Shown here piece by piece: positions 16,611 through 28,828 of a stretch of DNA of 64,000 nt. Each line of letters begins with the position of its first letter. The stretch's first letter is position 1. The DNA lies in IMG/VR virus record IMGVR_UViG_3300013288_000004, positions 191,360 to 255,359 of that record, one strand, 5' to 3'. Under the pieces are notes generated by a model. It worked only from the letters and a program-made list of their open reading frames with translations, was not told the DNA's origin and ran no database searches. The position numbers were made by a program, and so were the translations under genes. This DNA comes from a virus. Its lineage: Duplodnaviria > Heunggongvirae > Uroviricota > Caudoviricetes.

Positions 16611-17144
16611 TTATTCAATCTTTACCAATCGTTCCTTTCGAATAGGTTCGACCTTCTTATTTGGTGGCGTAACATTAACAGTTAGCAAACCATTTTCAAA
16701 TGTCACATCATGTACCTCACTATCCTTTGATATGGTAAATCGCAACTCTTTCTTTGAAAAGGAAAGTTTCTTATGGAATGCTTTCACTTTAGCTTTCGAT
16801 CCTATTTCTAACGGTTCTTCTTCTGATTTATTTTCTGCAATAATTTGAAGAATTTTATCCTCTAGGATTTTAATGGTAATTTGGTCTTTAGAGAATCCAG
16901 CCAACGCAACGTCGATTCTATATGTACCATCAACCAAATGTACATCATATGGCGGCTGTGATGCTGTTATTTCATCCATAGCAAAATCACTAGATAGTGA
17001 CCAAGATCCTATTCCATTAAATAGCGAATCCATTAAATCGAATCGTCGATCTAACGATTTTTGTACATTTTGTATATAGTTATCTGCTAAACTAGTAACT
17101 GGCGCATTAAACTTCTTAACTGCATTTGTAGTATTTTTAAACAT
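16611..17144 (-). CDS. Small heat-shock protein (Hsp20/IbpA-like)
   Basis: PPYDV..YRIDVALAGFSKDQI..FENGLLTV; AAAGGAG SD. Confidence 0.9.
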   Translation of the reverse strand: MFKNTTNAVKKFNAPVTSLADNYIQNVQKSLDRRFDLMDSLFNGIGSWSLSSDFAMDEITASQPPYDVHLVDGTYRIDVALAGFSKDQITIKILEDKILQIIAENKSEEEPLEIGSKAKVKAFHKKLSFSKKELRFTISKDSEVHDVTFENGLLTVNVTPPNKKVEPIRKERLVKIE

Positions 17145-17219
17145 AATTTTTCTCCTTTATAGCAAGTTATGTTTTTATGATCCCATTCGGCGATCAATTT
17201 GCTGATCATTCAGCACTAC

Positions 17220-17250
17220 TATTTATAGGAGATTTTGGGTACATTGTCAA
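17220..17250 (-). promoter_or_regulatory. Composite sigma70/late promoter for hsp20
   Basis: TTGACA-N17-TATAAA, whose -10 is part of a TATAAATA late box. Confidence 0.65.
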
Positions 17251-17269
17251 GTCACAATTGTAAAAATAT

Positions 17270-17557
17270 TTAAAATTCTATTCCATCTACATCATTGCAA
17301 ATCTGTATAAGATAATCACCGTGGCATGCTTTTGGTTTGCAGAAACAAACTAGATTTTTACCTTTCAAATCCTGTATAATTTCATGTTTCAATTCTGGAT
17401 TGCTTTCAACATAATCAATATATTTTTCGATTACCTGTCCTCTTGTACCGTCTACGCCACGAATGAAGGGGTTCCCATAATATGAACCCCTTCCAATATA
17501 CACACAATCGTTTGGCCTATTTTCGTCAGATATGTTATAAACTTTTGGCATCATCAC
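17270..17557 (-). CDS. DUF4326-family protein
   Basis: VYIGRGSYYGNPF..LKGKNLVCFCKPKACHGDYL. Confidence 0.85.
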   Translation of the reverse strand: MMMPKVYNISDENRPNDCVYIGRGSYYGNPFIRGVDGTRGQVIEKYIDYVESNPELKHEIIQDLKGKNLVCFCKPKACHGDYLIQICNDVDGIEF

Positions 17558-18966
17558 TTTTTAATAAAACTATTCGCCCTATTACGAATAATATCAAATG
17601 TTTCAAAATATGATTCTATTGGACCATTTTCATACGCTAATACCATTTCATCATGTTGATAATCTTCAATATCTTCAATCCTAGTTGTATGATAGCCTGA
17701 ATCATCCGTGACGAGTGTCAATTCACCACGTTTAGACGCTTTAGATAAATCAGTCTTGGGATTTTTAAACACATCACGCTGGACTCCATTAACAGTAATA
17801 CTTGAACATTTCATAGCATACTTATAAGAATCCCTATCTACTTTTTGTAATGTTCCAGCGCCCATACCGAATGCTAAATTTGACATACTCAAACCTTCTT
17901 TTAAAAGATTTTCTATGATCAATGGGATTGAATTTATAGTAATACCATCACCTTGAATAACTCTCACATGATTAGGCAACACTTTATAACCTTTAGAATT
18001 AATAGTATATCCTTCTAGTTCCATCAATCGTTTAATCACTTCGATAGGCATAGTTAGAGGATTCCCTGAATCTGGACGTAATACTATTGTGGCGCCTTTA
18101 GCTTTAACAGCACTCAAAAGCTTAGGATTCTTATTCCACATATCTATTGCAGCGAATGTATCATAACTATCAATTACGCAAGCAAACATGGCACCGGGTT
18201 TAGCATATTTGTTGACCATGTTAATATATGCATCTTCTTCGCAGTCTTCACCCCAACTGGTCATTGTAGAATGCTCTGATGCGGAAATTGAAAAACCACA
18301 AACGTCTGAATAATAGTTTTCTATAGCACATGTGATACCAGCTAACGTATCAGTGCCCTTGAAATTAACAAGGTGTGCACAATTACCAATTGATGCAGAT
18401 TCTAAAGAGCTAACGCCACGAAAACCGAAACAATGCAACTTAAAATCAATTTCTGAATCAGGGTCGTCAGATGATTCTACCAGAGCATCGTAAATGTACT
18501 GTTTAGCTAAAAATGAATTACTGGCTACAGTACTACCATACCAGAAGTTTTGCAACAATGCGGTTTCCAAGAAAGATGTAAGCCAGAAACATTCTGGATC
18601 TGTATTCTCAATTGTCAGCAATACATTATTTGTCGGAATAACTGAGCCTTCCCTCACGGAGCGAATCTTCACTGGTAGAACCCCATTGTGTTTTTCTACA
18701 ATGTACTCCCAACCTGTTCGATTAAACTCTAGCCCGTGTGCAGTCAAGAGCGTGGCAGCTTGCTCAATATCTTCTTTGGTAACTGGTTTAATCAGATAAT
18801 TTTTAATGAAATACTGCAATCCGAAAACCATTACACTATGCGTAATAGTACTACCACGGCTTTCTATATAAGAAAAGACTTTTTGTGTGTTTTTTGGATA
18901 CTGTTGGTAGTGTGTGTGCTTATAACTATCAGTGAAAAGTATTAAATTGTTTTTTAGATTTGTCAT
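17554..18966 (-). CDS. nadV: Nicotinamide phosphoribosyltransferase (start revised to MTNLK)
   Basis: TDSYKHTH..QYP, GLQYFIK, HCFGFRG, HLVNFKGTDT, ASEHS, DSYD, IVLRPDSG, IQGDG, FGMGAG. Confidence 0.95.
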   Translation of the reverse strand: MTNLKNNLILFTDSYKHTHYQQYPKNTQKVFSYIESRGSTITHSVMVFGLQYFIKNYLIKPVTKEDIEQAATLLTAHGLEFNRTGWEYIVEKHNGVLPVKIRSVREGSVIPTNNVLLTIENTDPECFWLTSFLETALLQNFWYGSTVASNSFLAKQYIYDALVESSDDPDSEIDFKLHCFGFRGVSSLESASIGNCAHLVNFKGTDTLAGITCAIENYYSDVCGFSISASEHSTMTSWGEDCEEDAYINMVNKYAKPGAMFACVIDSYDTFAAIDMWNKNPKLLSAVKAKGATIVLRPDSGNPLTMPIEVIKRLMELEGYTINSKGYKVLPNHVRVIQGDGITINSIPLIIENLLKEGLSMSNLAFGMGAGTLQKVDRDSYKYAMKCSSITVNGVQRDVFKNPKTDLSKASKRGELTLVTDDSGYHTTRIEDIEDYQHDEMVLAYENGPIESYFETFDIIRNRANSFIKK

Positions 18967-18986
18967 GACCATAACTCCTATGTGTC
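18967..18986 (-). promoter_or_regulatory. Conserved SD-containing hairpin/operator, copy 1 (nadV)
   Basis: GACACATAGGAGTTATGGTC immediately before the ATG. Confidence 0.7.
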
Positions 18987-19019
18987 GTGTTTGTACAATA
19001 CTATTTATGCTTCTGATTG

Positions 19020-19568
19020 TCAATCATGTAGATCATACTTCTCAATTTTATCTTTTGGTCCAATTACTTCTTTACTTATAATTTTATTCATGTTATAAAG
19101 AACCATCATCTTTTCACCCCAACCAAATGGAGAACTGACCATCGTATAGTCTACTCCATTTTTAACTAAAAATTCTCTAAGATCGCTAACATTTGCAGTC
19201 CTAAGACCATCATAGTTTATGATAATTGTTATCATTCTATCAGCTACAACTGAGCCATTCTGTTCATATTTACTAATAGCTTCTAGAACTTCTTTGCGTT
19301 TTTTAACTATACAATACGTATTAACAAACTGTGCTATATCTGGTAAAGGAATAAATGAATTATTACTATCGCTACCTTGTTCAACCGTTATTCTATAGAA
19401 TTTTCTATTACCTTTAGCGTATTTCTTAGCAGTACCATAATGGGTTGTTAAATATAATCCCGGACCATACTCCCACTTTCCAGAACGAGTCTGGATCGGT
19501 AGGTCTAGATTCCCACCATGCCAGAATTGCATGGGTTCATTTGATTCGAAAATATTTTCCAGTTTCAT
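19020..19568 (-). CDS. ADP-ribosyltransferase-like protein (H-Y-E type)
   Basis: FWHGG..GPGLYLTT..AKKYA..GEKMMVLYN. Confidence 0.55.
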   Translation of the reverse strand: MKLENIFESNEPMQFWHGGNLDLPIQTRSGKWEYGPGLYLTTHYGTAKKYAKGNRKFYRITVEQGSDSNNSFIPLPDIAQFVNTYCIVKKRKEVLEAISKYEQNGSVVADRMITIIINYDGLRTANVSDLREFLVKNGVDYTMVSSPFGWGEKMMVLYNMNKIISKEVIGPKDKIEKYDLHD

Positions 19569-19589
19569 AAAATTCACAAATTATGTAAA

Positions 19590-19597
19590 TATTTATA
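19590..19597 (-). promoter_or_regulatory. T4-type late promoter
   Basis: TATAAATA directly upstream of the ART-like gene. Confidence 0.65.
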
Positions 19598-19901
19598 ACA
19601 CTCCCTGTTCAACAATAGATGATACATCTTGGGTACGATTTTCAAATCTGCGTCTCTGTTTTTCTACGTATTCGCTTAAAGTCTGTTTTGCCTCTAATAA
19701 AGAGGAGAAAGTGTATTCATAATCATTTCTAAACATCTCAATAGTGCCATGTATGTCCAACGTATACCAAGGACAACCCCATGAAGATATATCTTTTATG
19801 TACACTTTAAAATATGTACGCGATACGTGCCCACTATGGATGTTTGTAACATTATGCTGTTTTATCTCGTATTTGAAAACTGGTCGCTTTGGCTTAGACA
19901 T
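19593..19901 (-). CDS. hypothetical protein
   Basis: ORF with AAAGG SD. Confidence 0.65.
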   Translation of the reverse strand: MSKPKRPVFKYEIKQHNVTNIHSGHVSRTYFKVYIKDISSWGCPWYTLDIHGTIEMFRNDYEYTFSSLLEAKQTLSEYVEKQRRRFENRTQDVSSIVEQGVL

Positions 19902-19961
19902 GAATTATACCTTTTTCGATGGTAATAACGTTTTTATTAAACAACTTTAAAATGAATGAGA

Positions 19962-20339
19962 TCATAAGTAAACAATTCCATTTTCTTCTATGATTTCTGT
20001 TTTAACTATTTGTCTTTCGATACACTCAGATAAAGCTTTAAGGATGGGGACGAGTTCACTAACGGTGAACACATAATTATCATAGTCGTTAATCATCTCA
20101 CATGCTGGAATAAAATCCTCTAAGCGTGGGTAGTACGTATGGACTGGGGTTGGACCATCATACTTAGAATATTTTCCGATAAGTACAGATTTCCAATCTT
20201 CACAATCGGGCTTACTAACGTGCATAACACATAAGGGTAACCTACGATCACCACCGAATTCAATTCTTATAAATTTATATAATTTATATTTGAATAGTTC
20301 TTTACTGGTATGCACAACTGTCACATTCTCATCAATCAT
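19962..20339 (-). CDS. hypothetical protein
   Basis: ORF overlapping the HD gene stop (ATGA). Confidence 0.65.
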   Translation of the reverse strand: MIDENVTVVHTSKELFKYKLYKFIRIEFGGDRRLPLCVMHVSKPDCEDWKSVLIGKYSKYDGPTPVHTYYPRLEDFIPACEMINDYDNYVFTVSELVPILKALSECIERQIVKTEIIEENGIVYL

Positions 20340-20974
20340 GACAATAACTCCAAATAATCATTAGCTTCTTTAATCTTTTCATCGACTATATTCTGGTTGA
20401 ACTTCTGCTTACCCCATTCTGAGATAAATTTGAGATTTGTAAAGAAACCGGCTTGCATCTTGAATACATCAATAGGGCTTACGCACATTTCAGAGGAAAG
20501 TCCAAAAATGATTTCCTGAACCCACACTGGGCTAAGACCTTGACTCAAATCAGCATCCCTTAAAATTGCTTCTTCAAGGCTCAAATGATCCGCCGAAACA
20601 ATATGTGGGAACTGCGTTGTCCTGATCATGGAAGCGATCAATTCCAAATCTTGTTCGTCATATGGATGAATGTTCTTTGTTAATCCTCTAATTGAGATCT
20701 CTATATTCAGATCATCATTACCGCTTCGACCCGGATGATCAAAATCGTGAAACATGGCGGCGATCAAAAGATTTCGCATTTGTTTAGGTGACATAATATC
20801 TTTGTAGAACACACACGCATCATAACACAACCATGTCACATGAAACATATGACGAAAGTTGTGGTACGGATTCTTTAAATTTTTTGCAGAAGTCATGACG
20901 ACCTGAAAATAATGTTTCAGGTCGCCTTCATAGACATCATCAATATTCTTGATTATTTCTGGTAAATTTGCCAT
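20336..20974 (-). CDS. HD-domain phosphohydrolase, class-I cyclic nucleotide PDE-like
   Basis: NPYHNFRH..V, LLIAAMFHDFDHPG, ILRDADL. Confidence 0.75.
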   Translation of the reverse strand: MANLPEIIKNIDDVYEGDLKHYFQVVMTSAKNLKNPYHNFRHMFHVTWLCYDACVFYKDIMSPKQMRNLLIAAMFHDFDHPGRSGNDDLNIEISIRGLTKNIHPYDEQDLELIASMIRTTQFPHIVSADHLSLEEAILRDADLSQGLSPVWVQEIIFGLSSEMCVSPIDVFKMQAGFFTNLKFISEWGKQKFNQNIVDEKIKEANDYLELLS

Positions 20975-21568
20975 TTACATTCCTTTTAATTTATTTGGTA
21001 CAATTTCTTCATGCATCCAATGTGTGCCGGTTGTTACGTGGTTCTTGCGAACGAACTTTGCTACAGACTGTGCGAAATCTTCATAAGAAAATGCATCAGC
21101 AAGTCTTACAACATAACCTTCCATAGAACCATCGTCAACAAACAGCGACTTAATGTAACCTTCACTGAAAATACCATCATACAACACTTTCACCGGAGTA
21201 ACACCGAGCAACTGAAACCATTCTACAGTCTCATCCCATGAAAGGCAAACGTTGTTATCATCCCACATGGAGAAACCATAAAAATATGATTCCAGATCAT
21301 TATATTCAATGGAGTGTTTGGCGTATAAATTTTCACCACATATCCTAAAATTCTCTGGGATATTGTGCTGAAATTCAGCAGCAAACTTCTTTAACCAATC
21401 TCTTGATGGATGATTGGCAGAGTCTAAAGAACGTGCATGTGTACGATCATTATAAATTGAACAATTATGAACAAGAATGCCGTTAGCGAAAAAATTGTTA
21501 TTCTTCTTAACAGAAATATCATATTTTTTCGATGTGTTATCTATCTTTTTTATTGATTTTATCTTCAT
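20975..21568 (-). CDS. RNA ligase C-terminal part preceded by a 35 aa C-intein
   Basis: KYDISV..NNFFANGILVHN/C, then HARSLDS..HPSRDW..ICGENLYAKHSI..EGYVVR..AKFVR. Confidence 0.9.
   Translation of the reverse strand: MKIKSIKKIDNTSKKYDISVKKNNNFFANGILVHNCSIYNDRTHARSLDSANHPSRDWLKKFAAEFQHNIPENFRICGENLYAKHSIEYNDLESYFYGFSMWDDNNVCLSWDETVEWFQLLGVTPVKVLYDGIFSEGYIKSLFVDDGSMEGYVVRLADAFSYEDFAQSVAKFVRKNHVTTGTHWMHEEIVPNKLKGM
21464..21568 (-). mobile_element. Split intein, C-terminal half (IntC)
   Basis: Blocks F and G ending HN, followed by a Cys as the +1 nucleophile. Confidence 0.92.
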
Positions 21569-22577
21569 AGTGATTTACTATTATTGATGAGACTATAGCA
21601 TACAATTCTTCGTCTGTTATGTCAACCATATCAGATTCCCATATATAATATACCCTATAGTTGTATTTTTCGGCTAGTTCCTTTTTGACTATATCTTTTT
21701 CCCATATTTCTTTTGCTGTTTTTTTACATTTTTGATATGAAAAAACTAAATCGTCTTCTTTATACATTTTGGGGTTTGCATGAAAATAATCACCATTAAC
21801 TTCTATAATTATATTAGTCTGATCAATTAGAAAATCATAACTACGATTTCGTATCCATTTTTGTCGAGTATGTGCAACATTATTTGCTACCAAAATATTA
21901 CTTACCCTATCTTCTAGTTTAGACTTTCCAAATTTGCTGTCTAACCTTGTTCTTTTTTGTATTATTGCGGCTTGTTGTTCTTTTGACAATCCCTTCCAAT
22001 AATTACTAGTACTTTCACCGAGTCTTTTACCTATTAATTTTCTATACTCAAGAGTCTGAGAAGCCCACCATTTGGTAAAATTTCCGTATCTATTTGGTAA
22101 ACTCTTAACTCCATATTTCGTAATCATTAAATCTGGCAGCATTTTTTTAAACTTTTCATCTTTAAATATGTTAGACACGCCATAATTTTTCATAAATGTT
22201 GCAGCTACTTTATCCTTTACAATTTGTGATTTAGCTGGATTATCTACACCATATTTTTTTAAATTAGTTTGCTTTCTTTGTTCTTTTATGACTTCACATT
22301 GTAAAGATTCTTTATGAGACCTACTTTCTATTGAATGATACTTCAATAGAAAGTAGAAAATACTAGAACCCATAAAATATAATTCAGTATATATTTTATA
22401 TGCTGATATTTTATCTTCAATATACATTTTATGTAACAAATCTTTTGATATAAAAAGATTATTATATTTTAATAATTTTATTCTCTTTTCATTTTTACTT
22501 ATATCATCTTTATCACAAAAATAAACATGTCTGCCATTTTGTGGGTTAATTTCTTTATTACATATATAACATTTCAT
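21537..22577 (-). mobile_element. Free-standing Vsr/DUF559-like homing endonuclease
   Basis: KQTNLKKYGVDN-type repeats; SKLE..YDFLI..IIIEVNGDYFHANP..D..K..LA..YRVYYIWESD. Confidence 0.88.
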
Positions 22578-22598
22578 TCAAATACTCCGTTTAAAGAG

Positions 22599-22606
22599 TA
22601 TTTATC
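22599..22606 (-). promoter_or_regulatory. Late-type promoter for the endonuclease/IntC genes
   Basis: GATAAATA between the IntN gene and the HEG; GGAG SD follows. Confidence 0.5.
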
Positions 22607-22617
22607 AAAAAAGATGG

Positions 22618-22920
22618 CTATAGCAATTTTTTTACTTGATCACTTTCTAATATATCTTTAACACGTCTATAACAATTTAGATTGTCTACCCAAATATAAT
22701 GTTGTTCTGTAACTATCAAAATGGTTCCGTCTTCTAATTCTATTTCATACCACTGCGAATCGTTATCGTGAACTGATACAGCATAAACCTCTTGCATTTC
22801 TATAACATCAGAAACCATGTCATATGATTTAACTAATAAACCGACTAATTTATTGTCTACAATTTCTTTTATTGTTTTTGGGCCTAACGAAGTTTCGAGA
22901 ATGGTATCTCCGTCAAGACA
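22618..22920 (-). mobile_element. Split intein, N-terminal half (IntN)
   Basis: Starts CLDGDTILET, contains TEQH, ends at a stop codon with no endonuclease domain. Confidence 0.92.
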
Positions 22921-23067
22921 GTTTTCCCCGTCATACTTCTCAGAAACTACTACACGCTTACCAATAAAATTATCAAGACTTTTCAACATCTTGTCATCGT
23001 TGGTCATACCTTCGCTCCAGCTAAAATGAAGCGTGCGCGGATATTTTTTATATTTTGAGGCGTTCAT
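22618..23067 (-). CDS. RNA ligase N-terminal part (49 aa) fused to a 100 aa N-intein
   Basis: KYPRTLHFSWS..EKYDGEN, then CLDGDT..(block A)..LIVTEQHYIW (block B). Confidence 0.9.
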   Translation of the reverse strand: MNASKYKKYPRTLHFSWSEGMTNDDKMLKSLDNFIGKRVVVSEKYDGENCLDGDTILETSLGPKTIKEIVDNKLVGLLVKSYDMVSDVIEMQEVYAVSVHDNDSQWYEIELEDGTILIVTEQHYIWVDNLNCYRRVKDILESDQVKKLL

Positions 23068-23121
23068 GGCACATGCTCTAAAGATTAAGTAAAGCTATGA
23101 TATCAACCATTTCTTCCTGTG

Positions 23122-23517
23122 TCAAAGAGTTTTTTCACCAAATACAAAAATATCTACTGTAATAAATTGTAAGTCACTAACTAACTTGGTATCTTCGTCA
23201 ACAAATCCGACTGACCTCATCGCACCCTTGATAGGGAGCTTATCATTTTTACATTTTTGTGCAATTTTTCCCATCGGGGTATCTAGTAACTTAATTGTGG
23301 CCATCAATCTATCACCATCCATTCTTGCTGATACAACGGTATGAGATACATTTTCCACAGTAATGAGGGAATCTTTACCTATACCAAATTCTCCAAATGG
23401 AGGAAGCTCTGATTCGTTAATGTTATTACATACTTTGGTTAACTCTTCTAATGGAAATATGCGACCAGCACTGTCTGGTGTATTAGCCTGTTTCAATAAC
23501 ACTTCAATTGTATTCAT
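23122..23517 (-). CDS. Degenerate T4 gp21-like prohead protease paralog
   Basis: GRIFPLEEL, GEF, VSH, IKLLDTPMGKI follow the family pattern, but the GELxH His and GVSSRG Ser appear lost. Confidence 0.55.
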   Translation of the reverse strand: MNTIEVLLKQANTPDSAGRIFPLEELTKVCNNINESELPPFGEFGIGKDSLITVENVSHTVVSARMDGDRLMATIKLLDTPMGKIAQKCKNDKLPIKGAMRSVGFVDEDTKLVSDLQFITVDIFVFGEKTL

Positions 23518-23726
23518 ATAATCTCTCCAAAAATTAACAATTTTTCCACAATAAGATAAAATGCATATGGCGGAAAGAATATACTAAAGAATGTTGACCA
23601 AAATCCTTGTGCAATAACAATACCAGCTAACCATAAAAAGGACAGTGAGTATGTAACAATTAATACTAATACTTCACTTACAAGTTTTGTTATTGCTACA
23701 ACAGCGTTATTCATATGTAAATCCAT
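23514..23726 (-). CDS. Small membrane protein
   Basis: Two hydrophobic segments. Confidence 0.65.
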   Translation of the reverse strand: MDLHMNNAVVAITKLVSEVLVLIVTYSLSFLWLAGIVIAQGFWSTFFSIFFPPYAFYLIVEKLLIFGEII

Positions 23727-23748
23727 TTGTTTTTACTCTTAAGTCAAA

Positions 23749-23777
23749 ATTATATCGAGTTTGAACAACATTGTCAA
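23749..23777 (-). promoter_or_regulatory. Consensus sigma70 promoter
   Basis: Perfect TTGACA-N17-TATAAT heading the minus-strand run that contains the split-intein ligase. Confidence 0.85.
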
Positions 23778-23832
23778 TAATTTTTGGTACTTTCGCCGCA
23801 CATATGACTAAATATAAGAAAAAGGTAAAATT

Positions 23833-24678
23833 ATGAATTATTACGTATACGTCTACTTAGACACAAGAAAACCGGGTGAATATGTTTATGGCGACCTTCA
23901 ATTTAATTATGAACCATTTTATATTGGTAAAGGTAAAGGAAGTAGAGACAAACAACATTTACAAGAATATCACCTAAAGCATTCAAATAATAAAATGAAA
24001 AACGGAATTATTAATAAAATTATTAATTCTGGACTACAGCCAATGTTTTTGAGAATGAAAGAAAATTTGAATAATCAACAATCTATTGACATTGAAAAGC
24101 ATTTCATCAAATTGATAGGGAGAAGAAACTTACACAAAGGCCCATTAGCTAACTTAACTGATGGTGGAGAAGGAAATGAAGGGTGGATCGTTTCTAATGA
24201 AACAAAAGAGCTTTGGAGTAAACAGCGTAAAGGTAAAAAACAGACGGAAGCGCAATATAAAGCTAATTGTTCACGCGGACCTATGACAGAAGAACATAGA
24301 AGAAAAATATCAGAATCACAAAAGGGAAAAACAAGATTAACACCAGAACAATATAAAGAGAACGGATTAAAGCAGCGTGGGAAAAAAATGTCACAAGAAA
24401 CAAAAGATAAAATGAGCAAGCAGCGAAAAGGTAAAAAACAGACGGAAGCGCAATATAAAGCTAATTGCAACAGAATTGCAACGCGAATCCCTTTTCCATC
24501 TTATAATGATTTAAAAATATTATTGGTGGAGCACTCTATAAAATCATTGCCACAATACAAAAATTTTGTTAAACAAATGGTTCATATGAAATTACCAATA
24601 CAACTAAAACAATGTTATGAACTTAGGAACGAATGGATCTCATATGATGATATTTTTGGAAGAGAAACGGTAGCTTAA
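23833..24678 (+). mobile_element. GIY-YIG homing endonuclease with NUMOD3 repeats
   Basis: YYVYVYLD..PFYIGKGKGSR..E..I..L.N.TDGGEG; MTEEHRRKISESQKGK. Confidence 0.88.
24223..24467 (+). repeat. 47 bp direct repeat (24223-24269, 24421-24467), one mismatch
   Basis: cagcg[t/a]aaaggtaaaaaacagacggaagcgcaatataaagctaattg; encodes QRKGKKQTEAQYKANC twice. Confidence 0.9.
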
Positions 24679-24691
24679 GCTACCGTTTCTC
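24662..24691. terminator. Perfect 30 bp palindrome at a convergent junction
   Basis: gagaaacggtagctt|aagctaccgtttctc spans both stop codons. Confidence 0.8.
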
Positions 24692-25316
24692 ACTCACCAT
24701 ATTCCTCCCAAGAATCTTTAAACATTTCTTTTAATCTATCTAGATATTGCATTGTCTTAATCTTGTACATAGGTACACCACCAGCAAAGTTACCTTTACG
24801 TTCCGTACCTTTACAGATAACACCTTCTACTACATCATACTTTCCTTCGCGAACATCTTGAACCAATTCATAGTTCAATTCTGTAGTTGCAAAAACTCTA
24901 GGAATTTCTGTGACAGATCCAATACGATTAATGAAATTTTCTGGACCCATAAATGATTTGATCTTTGGATCATAAACATCAAATACAGTTAACTTGTGCG
25001 GTTCATCATCAACATGTCTACCGGCAAATGAGTTATCACCATGATATTCAGAAAATACAATTATGTTATCGGCCTTAGTTTTATCTGTAAAATATTTTGA
25101 CAGTGCGTCTGCACGTGTTTCATTAAAAAGTTTTACAATATTCCCCCAATAATCAGTTGACTCATCAACCAACTGTGTGCGCGTGCCAAATAGATTGAAC
25201 CCGTGTTTACGGGTCCATTTGGCTCTAAAATTAGAGCCGTCTATTTTTTCAAATACAAAAACCATCTGACCAAACTTGGCTTTCTTTGTATTTTTCATTG
25301 ATGGATATTCAAACAT
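24690..25316 (-). CDS. Second RNA ligase-like nucleotidyltransferase
   Basis: FEKIDGSNF, FGTR, FSEYHG, FDV, EGVICKG, KIKT. Confidence 0.8.
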   Translation of the reverse strand: MFEYPSMKNTKKAKFGQMVFVFEKIDGSNFRAKWTRKHGFNLFGTRTQLVDESTDYWGNIVKLFNETRADALSKYFTDKTKADNIIVFSEYHGDNSFAGRHVDDEPHKLTVFDVYDPKIKSFMGPENFINRIGSVTEIPRVFATTELNYELVQDVREGKYDVVEGVICKGTERKGNFAGGVPMYKIKTMQYLDRLKEMFKDSWEEYGE

Positions 25317-25533
25317 TTTTTAATTTCCAATTGTCATCTAATTTTACTTTTTGTTCTCTAATCAATTTGAATATCAAAAACTTCATATCAGTGGAATCAA
25401 ATATATTAATATTCCAACCATCTTCTTTATAAGATTTCAGGACATCTAAAAGAGATAGCGGGTGCCCTCTTCTTAATTTACTCAATAACCATTCTTCTGT
25501 TGCTTTTTCTTGATTGTTCACGGAAATTCTCAA
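25309..25533 (-). CDS. hypothetical protein (possible winged helix)
   Basis: 74 aa ORF coupled to both neighbours. Confidence 0.55.
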   Translation of the reverse strand: MRISVNNQEKATEEWLLSKLRRGHPLSLLDVLKSYKEDGWNINIFDSTDMKFLIFKLIREQKVKLDDNWKLKNV

Positions 25534-25877
25534 TTTCTCGTTTCTATCTTACCAGAATTTGCAATTTCTACAAGTGCATCGACATTTACATGTGGATTGA
25601 ATATTCGGGCATTCTTGTAATAAAAGTTTTCACTAGCCTCATGCTCTACAGCAGCTAGAACCGCTTTGTAAGCCGTTCTGACGATCTCTGACGTTACCAT
25701 GTGGTAAGATAGTTGCCACTTCCTGCAATACTGTCTCTCGACGTTTCCTGAGTCATTACAAGCACCCATAAACTGTATCTGTAAATATGGTACATCATTT
25801 TTTTCTTTTACAATGAATTCCCAATTTGAGAATTTTATTTGTTGTACGATTTGTTTAATTTGTTCTAAATTTTTCAT
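25530..25877 (-). CDS. Conserved-looking phage protein of unknown function (start revised to MKNLEQ)
   Basis: RKWQLSYHM..SEIVRTAYKAV..EHEASENF..IFNPH; carries the operator hairpin. Confidence 0.75.
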   Translation of the reverse strand: MKNLEQIKQIVQQIKFSNWEFIVKEKNDVPYLQIQFMGACNDSGNVERQYCRKWQLSYHMVTSEIVRTAYKAVLAAVEHEASENFYYKNARIFNPHVNVDALVEIANSGKIETRN

Positions 25878-25897
25878 GACCATAACTCCTATGTGTC
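25878..25897 (-). promoter_or_regulatory. Conserved SD-containing hairpin/operator, copy 2
   Basis: GACACATAGGAGTTATGGTC, identical to copy 1. Confidence 0.7.
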
Positions 25898-25908
25898 AAA
25901 TTTTTATT

Positions 25909-26976
25909 TTATAATCTATTCAAGAAATACAACACTAGGTCCATATGATCCTCGAATAACTTATTTCTCATGTTTCTAATTTCCGCGAAAGAAAACCAAT
26001 GCGCGTCAGAGGCATCGTCCAAACCGCTGACACGCGGGAGGTCATTATTGTCATCCAGCTTAATGCAATAAGCACTGGTAATGGTTCGTCCATTCTTAAT
26101 GAAGACTCTCCCACGTAATGAACGATCAGGATGGTCAAAAATTTTATGATCTACAATTGATCCTCTTAATACTTTTTCTGGAACCTTTATGCCAGTCTCT
26201 TCTCTGAGTTCCCTAATCATGGCATCTTCAAGAGTTTCGTCGGGGTGGACGTGCCCGCCCGGAATAGCCCAGAGAGATTTTCCCGGATTGTTCTTACGTT
26301 TAATTAAAAGAACATGGCCAGATTGTACTACCACCGCATCAACAGTAATGAAATTTAATGAGTATTCTTTAGGGAATGACAAAAACTTCTTGTCATAATT
26401 TACTGCGTCCTCATATTCAGAGCATAATGGATGAAATTCTGCTTTTGTTTGAAACTTCTCTAAGAAGTGATAAACGCCAACAGGCACAGCAGCTTTGACG
26501 AATTGCAGATGGCCAGAGAAATATAATTCTCTAACTTTAGTCGCATCAATATGCTTACCACCAGTAGAATCTAAAATCGCTGTTTCTATATAGTCCCACT
26601 GTTTAAAGTAGTTTATATACGATTCCGTCTTTTGATCTTTCTTTGCACCAAGCAGACAAACCGACTTATCACCGTTTGTAATTTCGTCAACACTGTTCAA
26701 AAGAGAAGCTGCCCAATTGGCGTTATTGTACAATTGGTCTTCAACATAGGTGAAAATAATTTTGTCACATTCTTCACCAGTTAGACATGACTGTATCATT
26801 TCAATACGTTCATTGACTGTGAATGGTGATTTTATTGTTCGTGGAGAATTTGCAGAACCAAGAACTATGATAAGTTTATGGCTTGTTTTTAGCGCATCTC
26901 GTACTGTAACTAAATGGCCTAAATGAAATGGTTGGAACCTTCCGATGTATACAGCATAATTATATGTATAAGGCAT
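25909..26976 (-). CDS. nadM: Bifunctional NMN adenylyltransferase / ADP-ribose pyrophosphatase (NadM-Nudix)
   Basis: YIGRFQPFHLGH; DATKVRE; Nudix box PGGHVHPDETLEDAMIRELREETGI. Confidence 0.95.
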   Translation of the reverse strand: MPYTYNYAVYIGRFQPFHLGHLVTVRDALKTSHKLIIVLGSANSPRTIKSPFTVNERIEMIQSCLTGEECDKIIFTYVEDQLYNNANWAASLLNSVDEITNGDKSVCLLGAKKDQKTESYINYFKQWDYIETAILDSTGGKHIDATKVRELYFSGHLQFVKAAVPVGVYHFLEKFQTKAEFHPLCSEYEDAVNYDKKFLSFPKEYSLNFITVDAVVVQSGHVLLIKRKNNPGKSLWAIPGGHVHPDETLEDAMIRELREETGIKVPEKVLRGSIVDHKIFDHPDRSLRGRVFIKNGRTITSAYCIKLDDNNDLPRVSGLDDASDAHWFSFAEIRNMRNKLFEDHMDLVLYFLNRL

Positions 26977-26996
26977 GACGATAACTCCTATCTGTC
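26977..26996 (-). promoter_or_regulatory. Conserved SD-containing hairpin/operator, copy 3 (nadM)
   Basis: GACAGATAGGAGTTATCGTC; two substitutions that swap a C-G pair for G-C. Confidence 0.7.
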
Positions 26997-27012
26997 AGTT
27001 TTATTTATCAGC

Positions 27013-27183
27013 TTAAATTTCTGCTATCTTGTCGCTGATTATTGCCAAGATGGTTTCTTTACATGCACCACAACCTGTGGATATATTCATTCTGTCAAAG
27101 ATCTCTTCTGGGTTTTTAATTCCAGAAGAGATCTGTTGCTCAATCTCTTCTAACTTAACATCATCACATAAACATATGTACAT
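27013..27183 (-). CDS. bfd: Bfd-like [2Fe-2S] protein (56 aa, not in track)
   Basis: Hand translation MYICLCDDV...STGCGACKETI has the CxC...CxxC ligand set. Confidence 0.8.
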   Translation of the reverse strand: MYICLCDDVKLEEIEQQISSGIKNPEEIFDRMNISTGCGACKETILAIISDKIAEI

Positions 27184-27184
27184 A

Positions 27185-28024
27185 TTACCCCTGAGTTAAA
27201 TATTTTATTAGTTGATTTGGTAACCAATGTAAATATTGTCCAGCCAGAGTAGTATGATAAATTACTGCCTGTTTGTAACCTTCCTGATCGTTAGAAGATA
27301 AGTTCTGGAGAATTTGTTCTATACATTCTATAGCTTGAACTTTCACGCTATGATCATTGTAGCCTTTCTCATCGTCAATTGCAATGCTATCTTCTATCTC
27401 TCTGATGCGATCTTTACACGCCTTTATAACATCTTTAGGTGTCTTGTATTTGTTAAGCTTCGCAGTGTCAGAATCATAATGAATAGAATTTACAGAATTC
27501 AGGGCTTTCTTTACAATTTTATCAAAATCGTCCGAAGTGAAAGCGTTAGGAGTTTCAAACTTGACTTCCGGCACTTCCTTCTGTTCTTCCGCTATAACAG
27601 CAGGCTGCACTTCTACTTGTGTTTCAATAACCTGTTCCATCTTTTCTTCAACAGTTTCTTCAACAACTGGTTCAGTAACTTTCACGGATTCGTCATATGA
27701 TTCCGCCTTATTTACATACTTTTGGGTCTCTGATTTTCCGCGTCTATGTAATTCACTAACACAGTAATTAATTTCATCAGCATAATAGCCGTACTTAGAC
27801 TTCGGACTATCTGGATTAGCTTTAATGGCTTCTTGAGCATCTTTAATAATATATCGCAACTGTTCTTCTGACATGTTCTTAACCTTAGCGGCATAAGCAG
27901 CATGGTCGAAATGCGGTCTGTCATAATTTTCTTTAATCGGATCTAATCCGGCCAAAACTCTTAAGCGATTGATCATGTTCATTTTTATTTTCCTAATAAT
28001 TATATGATGATATGTTTGTTCCAT
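27185..28024 (-). CDS. hypothetical protein, possibly head-associated
   Basis: Long ORF with an NRLRVLAGL..KE leader and a Glu/Val-rich linker; start probably near 27982. Confidence 0.7.
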   Translation of the reverse strand: MEQTYHHIIIRKIKMNMINRLRVLAGLDPIKENYDRPHFDHAAYAAKVKNMSEEQLRYIIKDAQEAIKANPDSPKSKYGYYADEINYCVSELHRRGKSETQKYVNKAESYDESVKVTEPVVEETVEEKMEQVIETQVEVQPAVIAEEQKEVPEVKFETPNAFTSDDFDKIVKKALNSVNSIHYDSDTAKLNKYKTPKDVIKACKDRIREIEDSIAIDDEKGYNDHSVKVQAIECIEQILQNLSSNDQEGYKQAVIYHTTLAGQYLHWLPNQLIKYLTQG

Positions 28025-28335
28025 TTACCATTCAAACCTCTTGAATCCGCTAGGTTTTTTACAGCATAATCCAATAATTTAACATATTGGTCCCATCGTG
28101 TCTTCATGTAAGCTAATGGTTTAGGAACATTTAATTCGTCTAATGAAAAATCAACAAGTTCGACTGGACTATTCCATTCTTTTTTCTTGTCTTTGCTATT
28201 TCTGTTTATGCCTTTTTGAATGTAGATCATAGTATCAAAAGGAAATGGGTCTCTCACATCGTCAGATATGAAAATACCCTTTTCCTTTGGTTTACGACCT
28301 TCATTTAAAATTTCACTCAGCTTTCGCATTTTCAA
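28000..28335 (-). CDS. hypothetical protein
   Basis: MRKLSEILNEG leader. Confidence 0.65.
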   Translation of the reverse strand: MKMRKLSEILNEGRKPKEKGIFISDDVRDPFPFDTMIYIQKGINRNSKDKKKEWNSPVELVDFSLDELNVPKPLAYMKTRWDQYVKLLDYAVKNLADSRGLNGKWNKHIII

Positions 28336-28828
28336 TATTTTCTCTTGATTGTTCTTGAAGTTGATCGAAATAATCCTCAGTTATTATAATATCTTTCAAA
28401 TGCTGCTGATTTCCTATGAAATAATCTTCGGTAGATTCTACACCTTCCACTGGTGCAGAAGTGGCCAGTGGTAGGTCATCAACAGTATCTGACAAATCTT
28501 CTAGTTTCTTTTTAGATTTATCCGCCAATTCATCATATTTATTTATAATACTTTCTAATATTATCACATAACCTTCATATTGTTCCAATGACAATCTGGC
28601 TATTCTCGCAGCCTTACCGGGATTAGTTTTCAACTCTTTCTTAAGTTCAGGAGTAGAATACTGTTTATATAAAAACTCTGGTTTTTCTACCTTTGGTGGT
28701 TTTGGGACAATATAAAATGGGATAGGCTTGTCCACATAGACAATCTCTTTTTCTGGTGTAGTTTGACACGCTGCCAGAAATATCGACACCACTAGTACTG
28801 ATATAATTTTTTTCATTTTAAAATGCAT
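28313..28828 (-). CDS. Lipoprotein, o-spanin (Rz1)-like
   Basis: Signal peptide with lipobox FLAAC, followed by Pro-rich VPKPPKVEKP. Confidence 0.65.
   Translation of the reverse strand: MHFKMKKIISVLVVSIFLAACQTTPEKEIVYVDKPIPFYIVPKPPKVEKPEFLYKQYSTPELKKELKTNPGKAARIARLSLEQYEGYVIILESIINKYDELADKSKKKLEDLSDTVDDLPLATSAPVEGVESTEDYFIGNQQHLKDIIITEDYFDQLQEQSRENIENAKAE

Follow-up and report, generated by a model that had tools for sequence, protein, structure and literature searches.

A 64,000-nt stretch of a Caudoviricetes genome (hereafter the window; positions 191,360 to 255,359 of IMG/VR record IMGVR_UViG_3300013288_000004) carries three copies of a 20-nt hairpin with the consensus GAC-A-(C/G)AUA-GGAGU-UAU(G/C)-GUC, each abutting the ATG of one gene in a nicotinamide adenine dinucleotide (NAD) salvage module: nadV, nadM-Nudix and a gene encoding a 115-aa protein, here called unk115. 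The element is a genuine conserved RNA hairpin structure. It is specific to NAD-salvage genes, marking a NAD-salvage regulon, and is very probably a translation-control element for a known anti-defence pathway.

That pathway, NARP2, is a recently recognised phage counter to NAD+-depleting immunity, such as Thoeris, DSR and SIR2-HerA. Its two enzymes, a nicotinamide phosphoribosyltransferase (NAMPT) and a nicotinamide mononucleotide (NMN) adenylyltransferase present in one phage, are both identified by Pfam in the window. The former is nadV (17554-18966, minus strand, 470 aa; NAMPT_N, 1.5e-30; NAPRTase, 3e-45), and the latter is nadM-Nudix, in which the adenylyltransferase is fused to a Nudix domain (25909-26976, minus strand, 355 aa; CTP_transf_like, 5e-13; NUDIX, 9e-21). 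The third gene preceded by the hairpin, unk115 (25530-25877, minus strand), matches no Pfam family.

Three hairpin copies and their covariation among relatives

The virus record to which the window belongs, labelled G000, is complete at 306,759 bp, with direct terminal repeats and a G+C content of 36%. The data sets listed as containing it are DNA metagenomes of bioreactor sludge, which may be the source sample, with no RNA data set among them. The 23-mer pattern formed by GACA[C/G]ATAGGAGTTAT[G/C]GTC and the adjoining ATG has exact matches on the minus strand at 18964-18986, 25875-25897 and 26974-26996, and zero matches in 100 shuffles. Copy 1 (18967-18986), directly 5' of the nadV AUG (18964-18966), and copy 2 (25878-25897), directly 5' of the unk115 AUG (25875-25877), share the sequence GAC-A-CAUA-GGAGU-UAUG-GUC, and in copy 2 the U at -1 is able to pair with the A of the start codon. 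Copy 3 (26977-26996), directly 5' of the nadM AUG (26974-26976), reads GAC-A-GAUA-GGAGU-UAUC-GUC, its sole change being a C-G pair swapped to G-C. The covariance model R1, described below, scores the three copies at 46.4, 50.2 and 42.1 bits, respectively. An earlier, sequence-only reading of the window had noted three copies immediately before an ATG and a single pair swap in the third, and had seen no further copies by eye, and it was accurate on each point: no fourth copy appeared in the window with three mismatches allowed, and the whole genome holds only these three, plus one three-mismatch sequence elsewhere that does not form a hairpin. The sequences flanking the copies are mutually unrelated, which rules out segmental duplication. 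No near-identical phage records were found.

The proposed hairpin is the minimum-free-energy fold, at about -5 kcal/mol, both in isolation and within 110 nt of native context. Its 3' arm contains an in-frame AUG at 25881-25883 and 18970-18972 (minus strand), only 2 nt past the Shine-Dalgarno sequence (SD), the use of which as a start codon is improbable. The AUG beyond the stem lies at the canonical 8-nt spacing from the SD and agrees with the N-termini of homologues. Because of the in-arm AUG, open reading frame (ORF) calls that take the first ATG begin two codons too early, and database entries for unk115 accordingly have 117 rather than 115 aa. Upstream of copy 1, a sigma-70-like promoter match, TTGACA-17-TATTGT (18995-19023, minus strand), identified by consensus only, ends 8 nt before the hairpin and is conserved in the related complete genome G002, so that a nadV transcript from this predicted promoter would begin practically at the hairpin.

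IMG/VR was scanned three times with a different part of the hairpin left free: the inner stem, the outer stem, or the outer stem together with the fifth loop base. When the inner stem was free, every true match was CAUA/UAUG with nadV, nadM or unk115 downstream, on further large phage contigs; the other matches had few pairs and were followed by unrelated ORFs or none. Altogether 27 instances, drawn from 13 phage contigs, were aligned without gaps, and R1 was built from the alignment. In this alignment 94.4% of the cells pair, against 16-50% for slid-partner controls, changes on both sides occur in six of the eight pairs, and the observed covariation score was reached by none of 500 shuffles. 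The sequence-only reading had proposed a covarying hairpin acting at the RNA level and had counted an absence of covariation in relatives as fatal to it; the relatives show abundant compensatory change.

At least nine different outer stems occur (GAC/GUC, AUC/GAU, AAU/AUU, GUC/GAC, UGC/GCG, UGC/GCA, GUU/AAC, GAU/AUC and GGU/ACC). Swaps in the inner stem comprise C-G to G-C, as in the GAUA/UAUC of nadM in the window and in G002, and A-U to U-A, as in the CUUA/UAAG of nadV in G007. The unpaired 5' base is A in 26 instances and C in one, the loop is GGAGN in all 27, with the SD unpaired in every one, and the A of the AUG joins a closing pair in 18. Every copy is on the coding strand, and with few exceptions the stem stops 0-2 nt short of the start codon. 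The element comprises a 3-bp outer stem free in sequence, optionally extended by a U-A closing pair that involves the A of the AUG; a single unpaired A in the 5' arm; an inner stem of 4 bp, (C/G)AUA/UAU(G/C); and a 5-nt GGAGN loop displaying the SD. The AUG comes immediately after.

Restriction to NAD-salvage genes

The two scans with a free outer stem returned 19 matches on viral contigs in which that stem is fully paired, and 18 of them precede NAMPT, NadM or unk115, as against 2 of 40 matches in which it is incompletely paired (Fisher p=5e-12). The 526-aa protein downstream of one core match (L173) is a NAMPT. The sole fully paired match not before a NAD gene, UGU-A-CAUA-GGAGA-UAUG-ACG (L174, 96-118, plus strand), precedes only a 43-aa ORF near the contig end, where chance or a truncated context is possible. 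The sequence-only reading had suggested a covariance-model scan and had proposed a candidate NAD regulon, open to challenge if the motif preceded many unrelated genes. With R1, hits at 33-50 bits fall at NAD-gene sites only in the complete genomes G000, G002, G004 and G009 (307-350 kb) and in two large fragments, and nothing else in these four jumbo-phage genomes and two fragments reaches 20 bits, so both the scan and the 18 of 19 paired matches bear the proposal out. Where other genomes have genes inserted between nadM and nadV (an HNH endonuclease, small ORFs), those genes have ordinary ribosome-binding sites (RBSs) and no hairpin.

Within the window's own genome, starts of ORFs of at least 50 codons with GGAG-N5-10-ATG were surveyed, a hairpin being defined by a fully paired spacer, the SD in the loop and at least 6 bp. 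Only 3 of 88 such starts have a fully paired spacer, exactly the three sites of the NAD module, and the hairpin is thus not the house style of this phage's RBSs. As a control, among at least 120 core matches in bacterial and archaeal sequences none lies before a NAD gene, and the outer stem is fully paired in 5.8% of them, the chance rate. A family of 69-aa genes (MMGLKKRNKPKEST...) is also preceded by the same core at L153, L162, L166, L171, L179, L180 and L182 (sample 3300045988); its outer arms, AUC/GAU, pair only with a two-base bulge (AA), and either an unrelated convergent RBS or a distant variant is possible.

The closest NadV proteins of GenBank phages are 46-57% identical to that of the window. 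Short-query blastn of the motif against GenBank phages returned chance-level matches only, in a search that is blind to 14-nt cores, and the leaders of cultured phages were therefore inspected directly. Several phages of Xanthomonas and Stenotrophomonas have the same architecture with different stem sequences: ACUG-A-UAUA-GGAGU-UAUA-CAGU-AUG before nadV of XacN1, AUC-A-CUAA-GGAGU-UUAG-GAU before nadV of Xoo-sp13 and RAS14, GCAA-A-GGAA-GGAGU-UUCC-UUGU-AUG before nadM of DLP_6, and GACU-U-GAA-GGAAC-UUC-AGUC-AUG before nadV of LucasX. In RAS14, nadV alone of 80 GGAG starts has an SD-loop hairpin of at least 6 bp. Xanthomonas phage X1 carries a bulge-less AGAAA-GGAGU-UUUCU before both nadM and nadV, its 13-mer occurring only there in 200 kb. 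The presence of this architecture in cultured phages makes the element directly testable.

The breadth of the class was assessed on 80 NadM loci fetched by protein similarity with alignment queries, single-protein queries having reached close relatives only. A fully paired SD-loop hairpin is found at 56 of the 75 nadM or nadV starts, whereas only 16 of the 172 neighbouring genes have one (odds ratio 29, p=1e-24; the loci are phylogenetically related, so that p-values overstate their independence, and the controls come from the same phages). When family A is excluded, the counts are 44 of 62 and 13 of 169. A separate large phage clade (L080-L151) has leaders of its own, with UUUG-GGAGC-CAAA-U-AUG before nadM, for which AUUG/CAAU is a covariant form, and G-AUAA-GGAGU-UUAU-C-AUG before nadV.

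Possible action of the hairpin and candidate readers

The inner core of the hairpin is under stronger constraint than its outer stem. In a quick IQ-TREE phylogeny of NadM, in which L092 and probably L058 are mislabelled owing to start-codon choice, window-type leaders form one clade of 11 protein-fetched loci (Shimodaira-Hasegawa-like approximate likelihood ratio support 94). The bulge (A in ten members, C in one) and the (C/G)AUA inner stem are present in all 11, with six outer-stem variants, and NadM branches within the clade exceed 1 substitution per site. The identical 23-mer is also carried by nadV genes whose proteins share just 46-55% identity. Between G000 and G002, NadM is 85% and unk115 83% identical, NadV only 46%. 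Around the nadV start of these two genomes, positions -10 to +20 are identical at 30/30 sites and positions -40 to -11 at 22/30 (window 18940-19023, compared with L045), so that the -10 hexamer, the spacer, the hairpin and the first seven codons all fall within the retained stretch; the remainder of nadV is 51% identical at the DNA level. The junction of this nadV allele exchange lies about 20-30 nt inside the coding sequence, with the leader unchanged, and the nadV leader appears to behave as a cassette retained through gene replacement.

The explanation we favour, to which the sequence comparisons lead us to give about an even chance, is that the hairpin serves as a shared translational operator clamped by a putative protein. 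The element forms the translation-initiation region of the NARP2 genes nadV and nadM-Nudix and, in this lineage, of the linked unk115, and the 30S subunit could dock on the SD exposed in the loop. The whole 8-nt spacer between SD and AUG is paired, in 18 of the 27 instances together with the A of the AUG, and the stem is weak; initiation would thus require it to melt and free the start codon for placement, and stabilising it in any way would repress translation. A protein recognising the bulged A, the inner stem and the loop could clamp the hairpin in this way and set the output of the pathway enzymes together, the shared element coupling the genes of the pathway. According to the preprint text of Osterman et al. 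(bioRxiv 10.1101/2024.02.11.579819), NARP2 consumes phosphoribosyl pyrophosphate (PRPP) and over-produces NAD+ even when no defence system is present, and the NARP2 operon of phage KVP40 was toxic in E. coli; clamping would keep such a PRPP-consuming, potentially toxic pathway in check. That a protein binds, in which direction it would shift translation and which protein reads the hairpin are all points that we infer.

Several observations weigh against a protein-clamped operator. Outside the 11-locus clade the inner stem varies freely (UAUA in XacN1, CUAA in RAS14, GGAA in DLP_6), and within contig c1231 the inner stem is UUAG for nadM and CAUA for nadV. The broad class is constant only in its SD loop and pairing, for which a purely structural role would also account. 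Part of the apparent invariance of the core was contributed by the two scans that fixed it, and since leaders recombine independently of the gene, protein divergence overstates their age. Among the candidate readers checked, unk115 and a phage CsrA, no binding protein was identified.

The main rival is a module acting only in cis, without a dedicated reader, a serious contender although we consider it the less probable account. Here the hairpin would fix the local fold, display the SD, pair the spacer and hide the upstream in-frame AUG, giving nadM and nadV matched, context-independent and limited initiation, and possibly 5'-end protection near the promoter. The retention of nothing but pairing and SD loop across the broad class, with stems wholly different between lineages, is in keeping with this, as are the compensated free evolution of the outer stem, a stability of -5 kcal/mol that is weak enough for opening by the ribosome, the promoter-like site that would place the hairpin at the transcript 5' end for nadV of G000 and G002, and the failure of the reader search. 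Left unexplained are why only the NAD genes, of about 88 SD-led genes, need such a module, why inserted genes of the same operon manage without it, and why the bulged A and inner stem stay near-invariant across a deep NadM clade despite drift of the outer stem.

A protein-clamped operator raises the question of its reader, for which the sequence-only reading had suggested the NadM-Nudix protein, the product of the gene of unknown function or host CsrA. The second suggestion fails: the complete genomes G004 and G009 carry the hairpin and lack unk115, which is rejected as a general reader, and at locus L218, where nadM and nadV have the hairpin, the RBS of unk115 is an ordinary one, so that unk115 is a regulated member in one lineage. 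As in CsrA/RsmA sites, all 27 instances present GGA in the loop of a short hairpin that overlaps the SD. Such targets are also expected to offer a single dimer at least one further GGA nearby, and this is lacking, GGA being no more frequent upstream (0.62 per 60 nt) than expected from genome composition (0.66). Phage-encoded CsrA was not detected in five phage genomes, in a search with a working control. Host CsrA/RsmA is a possible reader, fitting the broad class, with its loop GGA and free stems, better than the restriction to NAD genes. A search of the phage genomes for T4 RegA returned nothing and is uninformative, its positive controls being silent too, and an antisense partner RNA was sought in the genome with only one 12-mer match, about the chance expectation.

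Since NadM-Nudix covaries with leader type and nadV has been swapped without a change of leader, NadM would be the better candidate of the two enzymes, although this is a weak pointer. We would accordingly rank NadM-Nudix, acting on its own pathway, first among candidate readers, followed by another phage protein and then by host CsrA/RsmA. The specific proposal that NadM-Nudix reads the hairpin, and that its occupancy by NAD+, NMN or ADP-ribose decides whether the leaders are clamped, seems to us rather unlikely. If true, it would amount to a protein-based, NAD-responsive translational switch that turns on costly NAD+ rebuilding only when the NADase immunity of the host fires.

An improbable alternative is a signal for RNA processing or stability, in which an endoribonuclease of the T4 RegB type, or one of the host, would read the SD in the loop and shut the mRNAs off at a set time. 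The exposed GGAG, the confinement of the element to one functional gene set and the occurrence of RNA-repair genes (RNA ligases) nearby in large lytic phages would suit such a signal. RegB (PF10715) was not found in the phage genomes, where GGAG itself is present, by a search whose control genomes were equally silent; moreover, about 85 other GGAG RBSs of the genome lie outside hairpins, and such cleavage requires neither a bulge nor a paired spacer.

Still less probable is an element read in DNA, either an operator for a dimeric NrtR-like regulator or a recombination joint for NAD-gene cassettes. The sequence is an imperfect inverted repeat, and the nadV alleles of G000 and G002 have been exchanged with the leader unchanged, as a joint might predict. 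An NrtR-type operator is a symmetric palindrome with conserved half-sites, whereas here the single-base bulge offsets the half-sites and breaks the dyad symmetry, and the outer arms have stayed complementary while their sequence changed, contrary to what a palindrome read by a protein would show. Read from the opposite strand, the G-U pairs of G003 nadM and DLP_6 would become C-A mismatches, and the copies keep to the coding strand, with the stem nearly always stopping 0-2 nt short of the start codon. Pfam shows no helix-turn-helix or other DNA-binding domain in NadM-Nudix. The DNA operator that the sequence-only reading had offered as its alternative is therefore disfavoured by the asymmetry of the bulge, the covarying arms, the sense-only G-U pairs and the coding-strand position. 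A resemblance of GACAC-ATAGGAG to T7/SP6-like promoters was also considered and rejected, as the outer arm varies with compensation and the transcript would lose the SD.

That the hairpin itself binds NAD+, NMN or ADP-ribose is scarcely credible despite its linkage to NAD genes and the existence of NAD+-I and NAD+-II riboswitches, the second of which also acts at the SD, because 20 nt with a 5-nt SD loop provide no pocket, there is no conserved flanking sequence or second helix, the stems vary freely between lineages, and Rfam covariance models run over 17000-28500, including the nadA and pnuC motifs, gave no relevant match even at E<=10.

Whether or not a protein clamps it, the hairpin belongs to a kind already known, the small RBS hairpin that co-regulates a gene set. 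The coat-protein operators of MS2, PP7 and Qbeta are likewise short hairpins over an initiation region with one unpaired purine on the 5' strand, a feature the NAD hairpin shares through the bulged A of 26 of the 27 instances; the PP7 operator also matches it in the 4 bp that separate bulge and loop, and clamping of such operators blocks initiation. The NAD hairpin differs in holding the SD in its loop rather than the start codon in its stem, and in marking two or three metabolic genes of double-stranded DNA jumbo phages rather than a replicase. T4 gp43, gp32 and RegA, E. coli ThrRS on thrS and PyrR on pyr leaders similarly use a small RBS site to set a defined gene set; here one hairpin is common to two different enzymes, and its binder is only putative. 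CsrA/RsmA sites also place GGA in the loop of a short SD-overlapping hairpin with a free stem, but the NAD hairpin has a single GGA site, and a global regulator would not be expected to confine itself to NAD genes. Further cis-RNAs at the SD of NAD- or stress-related genes are the NAD+-II riboswitch (pnuC motif) and RNA thermometers; they are larger and sequester the SD by pairing, in the case of ROSE and fourU thermometers within a stem, whereas the NAD hairpin has 20 nt and leaves the SD unpaired in every instance.

What is new is the hairpin itself, its link to an anti-defence pathway and its spread across phages: it has no Rfam family, and a literature search found no paper on such an RBS hairpin at phage NAD genes. 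The regulated genes belong to the same pathway as the KVP40 NARP2 enzymes NadV/Nampt and NatV/Nmnat-Nudix, to which the hairpin lineage adds the conserved 115-aa partner gene; a term search of the text of that preprint (bioRxiv 10.1101/2024.02.11.579819), which deals with the enzymes and their anti-defence role, returned no RNA element. Nothing published was found on the control of NARP2 in phages, though the pathway drains PRPP and is toxic when mis-expressed, and the hairpin would be the first regulatory handle on it. Its sequence and structure can also serve as a signature in searches for more members of the NAD module, as happened with the unk115 gene.

The unk115 gene and its neighbours

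About 50 homologues of unk115 were found, every one annotated as hypothetical, with invariant RKW, HE and H residues. The gene is conserved adjoining nadM or nadV in several phage lineages (synteny in L216, L218 and L039), even at 50% identity, and the order in phage NAD-salvage loci is NadM-unk115-...-NAMPT. In a 79.6-kb phage without the hairpin, a phosphoribosyltransferase gene, a gene for a 138-aa protein, unk115 and NadV form a cluster with an overlapping stop and start. The confident AlphaFold2 model of unk115 (mean predicted local distance difference test score 90.6) has an alpha-beta-beta-beta-alpha arrangement. Fold searches gave no convincing match: Foldseek against PDB returned E>=0.036, matches in AFDB were all uncharacterised proteins, and atlas scores were at most 0.81. 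The best VIA-align Z-scores, at most 6.0 (type-III chaperone/YbjN-like), lie inside the tool's stated noise range.

Upstream of nadM, a gene for a 56-aa BFD-like [2Fe-2S] protein (27013-27183, minus strand; Fer2_BFD, 2.7e-12) ends 16 nt before hairpin copy 3, and small genes like it also occur near nadM, on its upstream side, in L218, G004 and G007. In several hairpin-bearing phages, NADAR (DUF1768-like) genes that themselves lack the hairpin lie close to nadM as well: one in L218 (7351-7908) by Pfam, and candidates in G004 (L078, 1230-1790) and G007 (L084, 544-1052) recognised by reading the sequence only. The interval between unk115 and nadV in the window contains genes of the RNA ligase family on the minus strand (20975-23067 and 24690-25316), one of them apparently split by intein halves (Intein_splicing, Hint), together with a GIY-YIG/NUMOD3 homing endonuclease on the opposite strand (23833-24678, plus) and an HD/PDEase-domain protein (20336-20974, minus strand).

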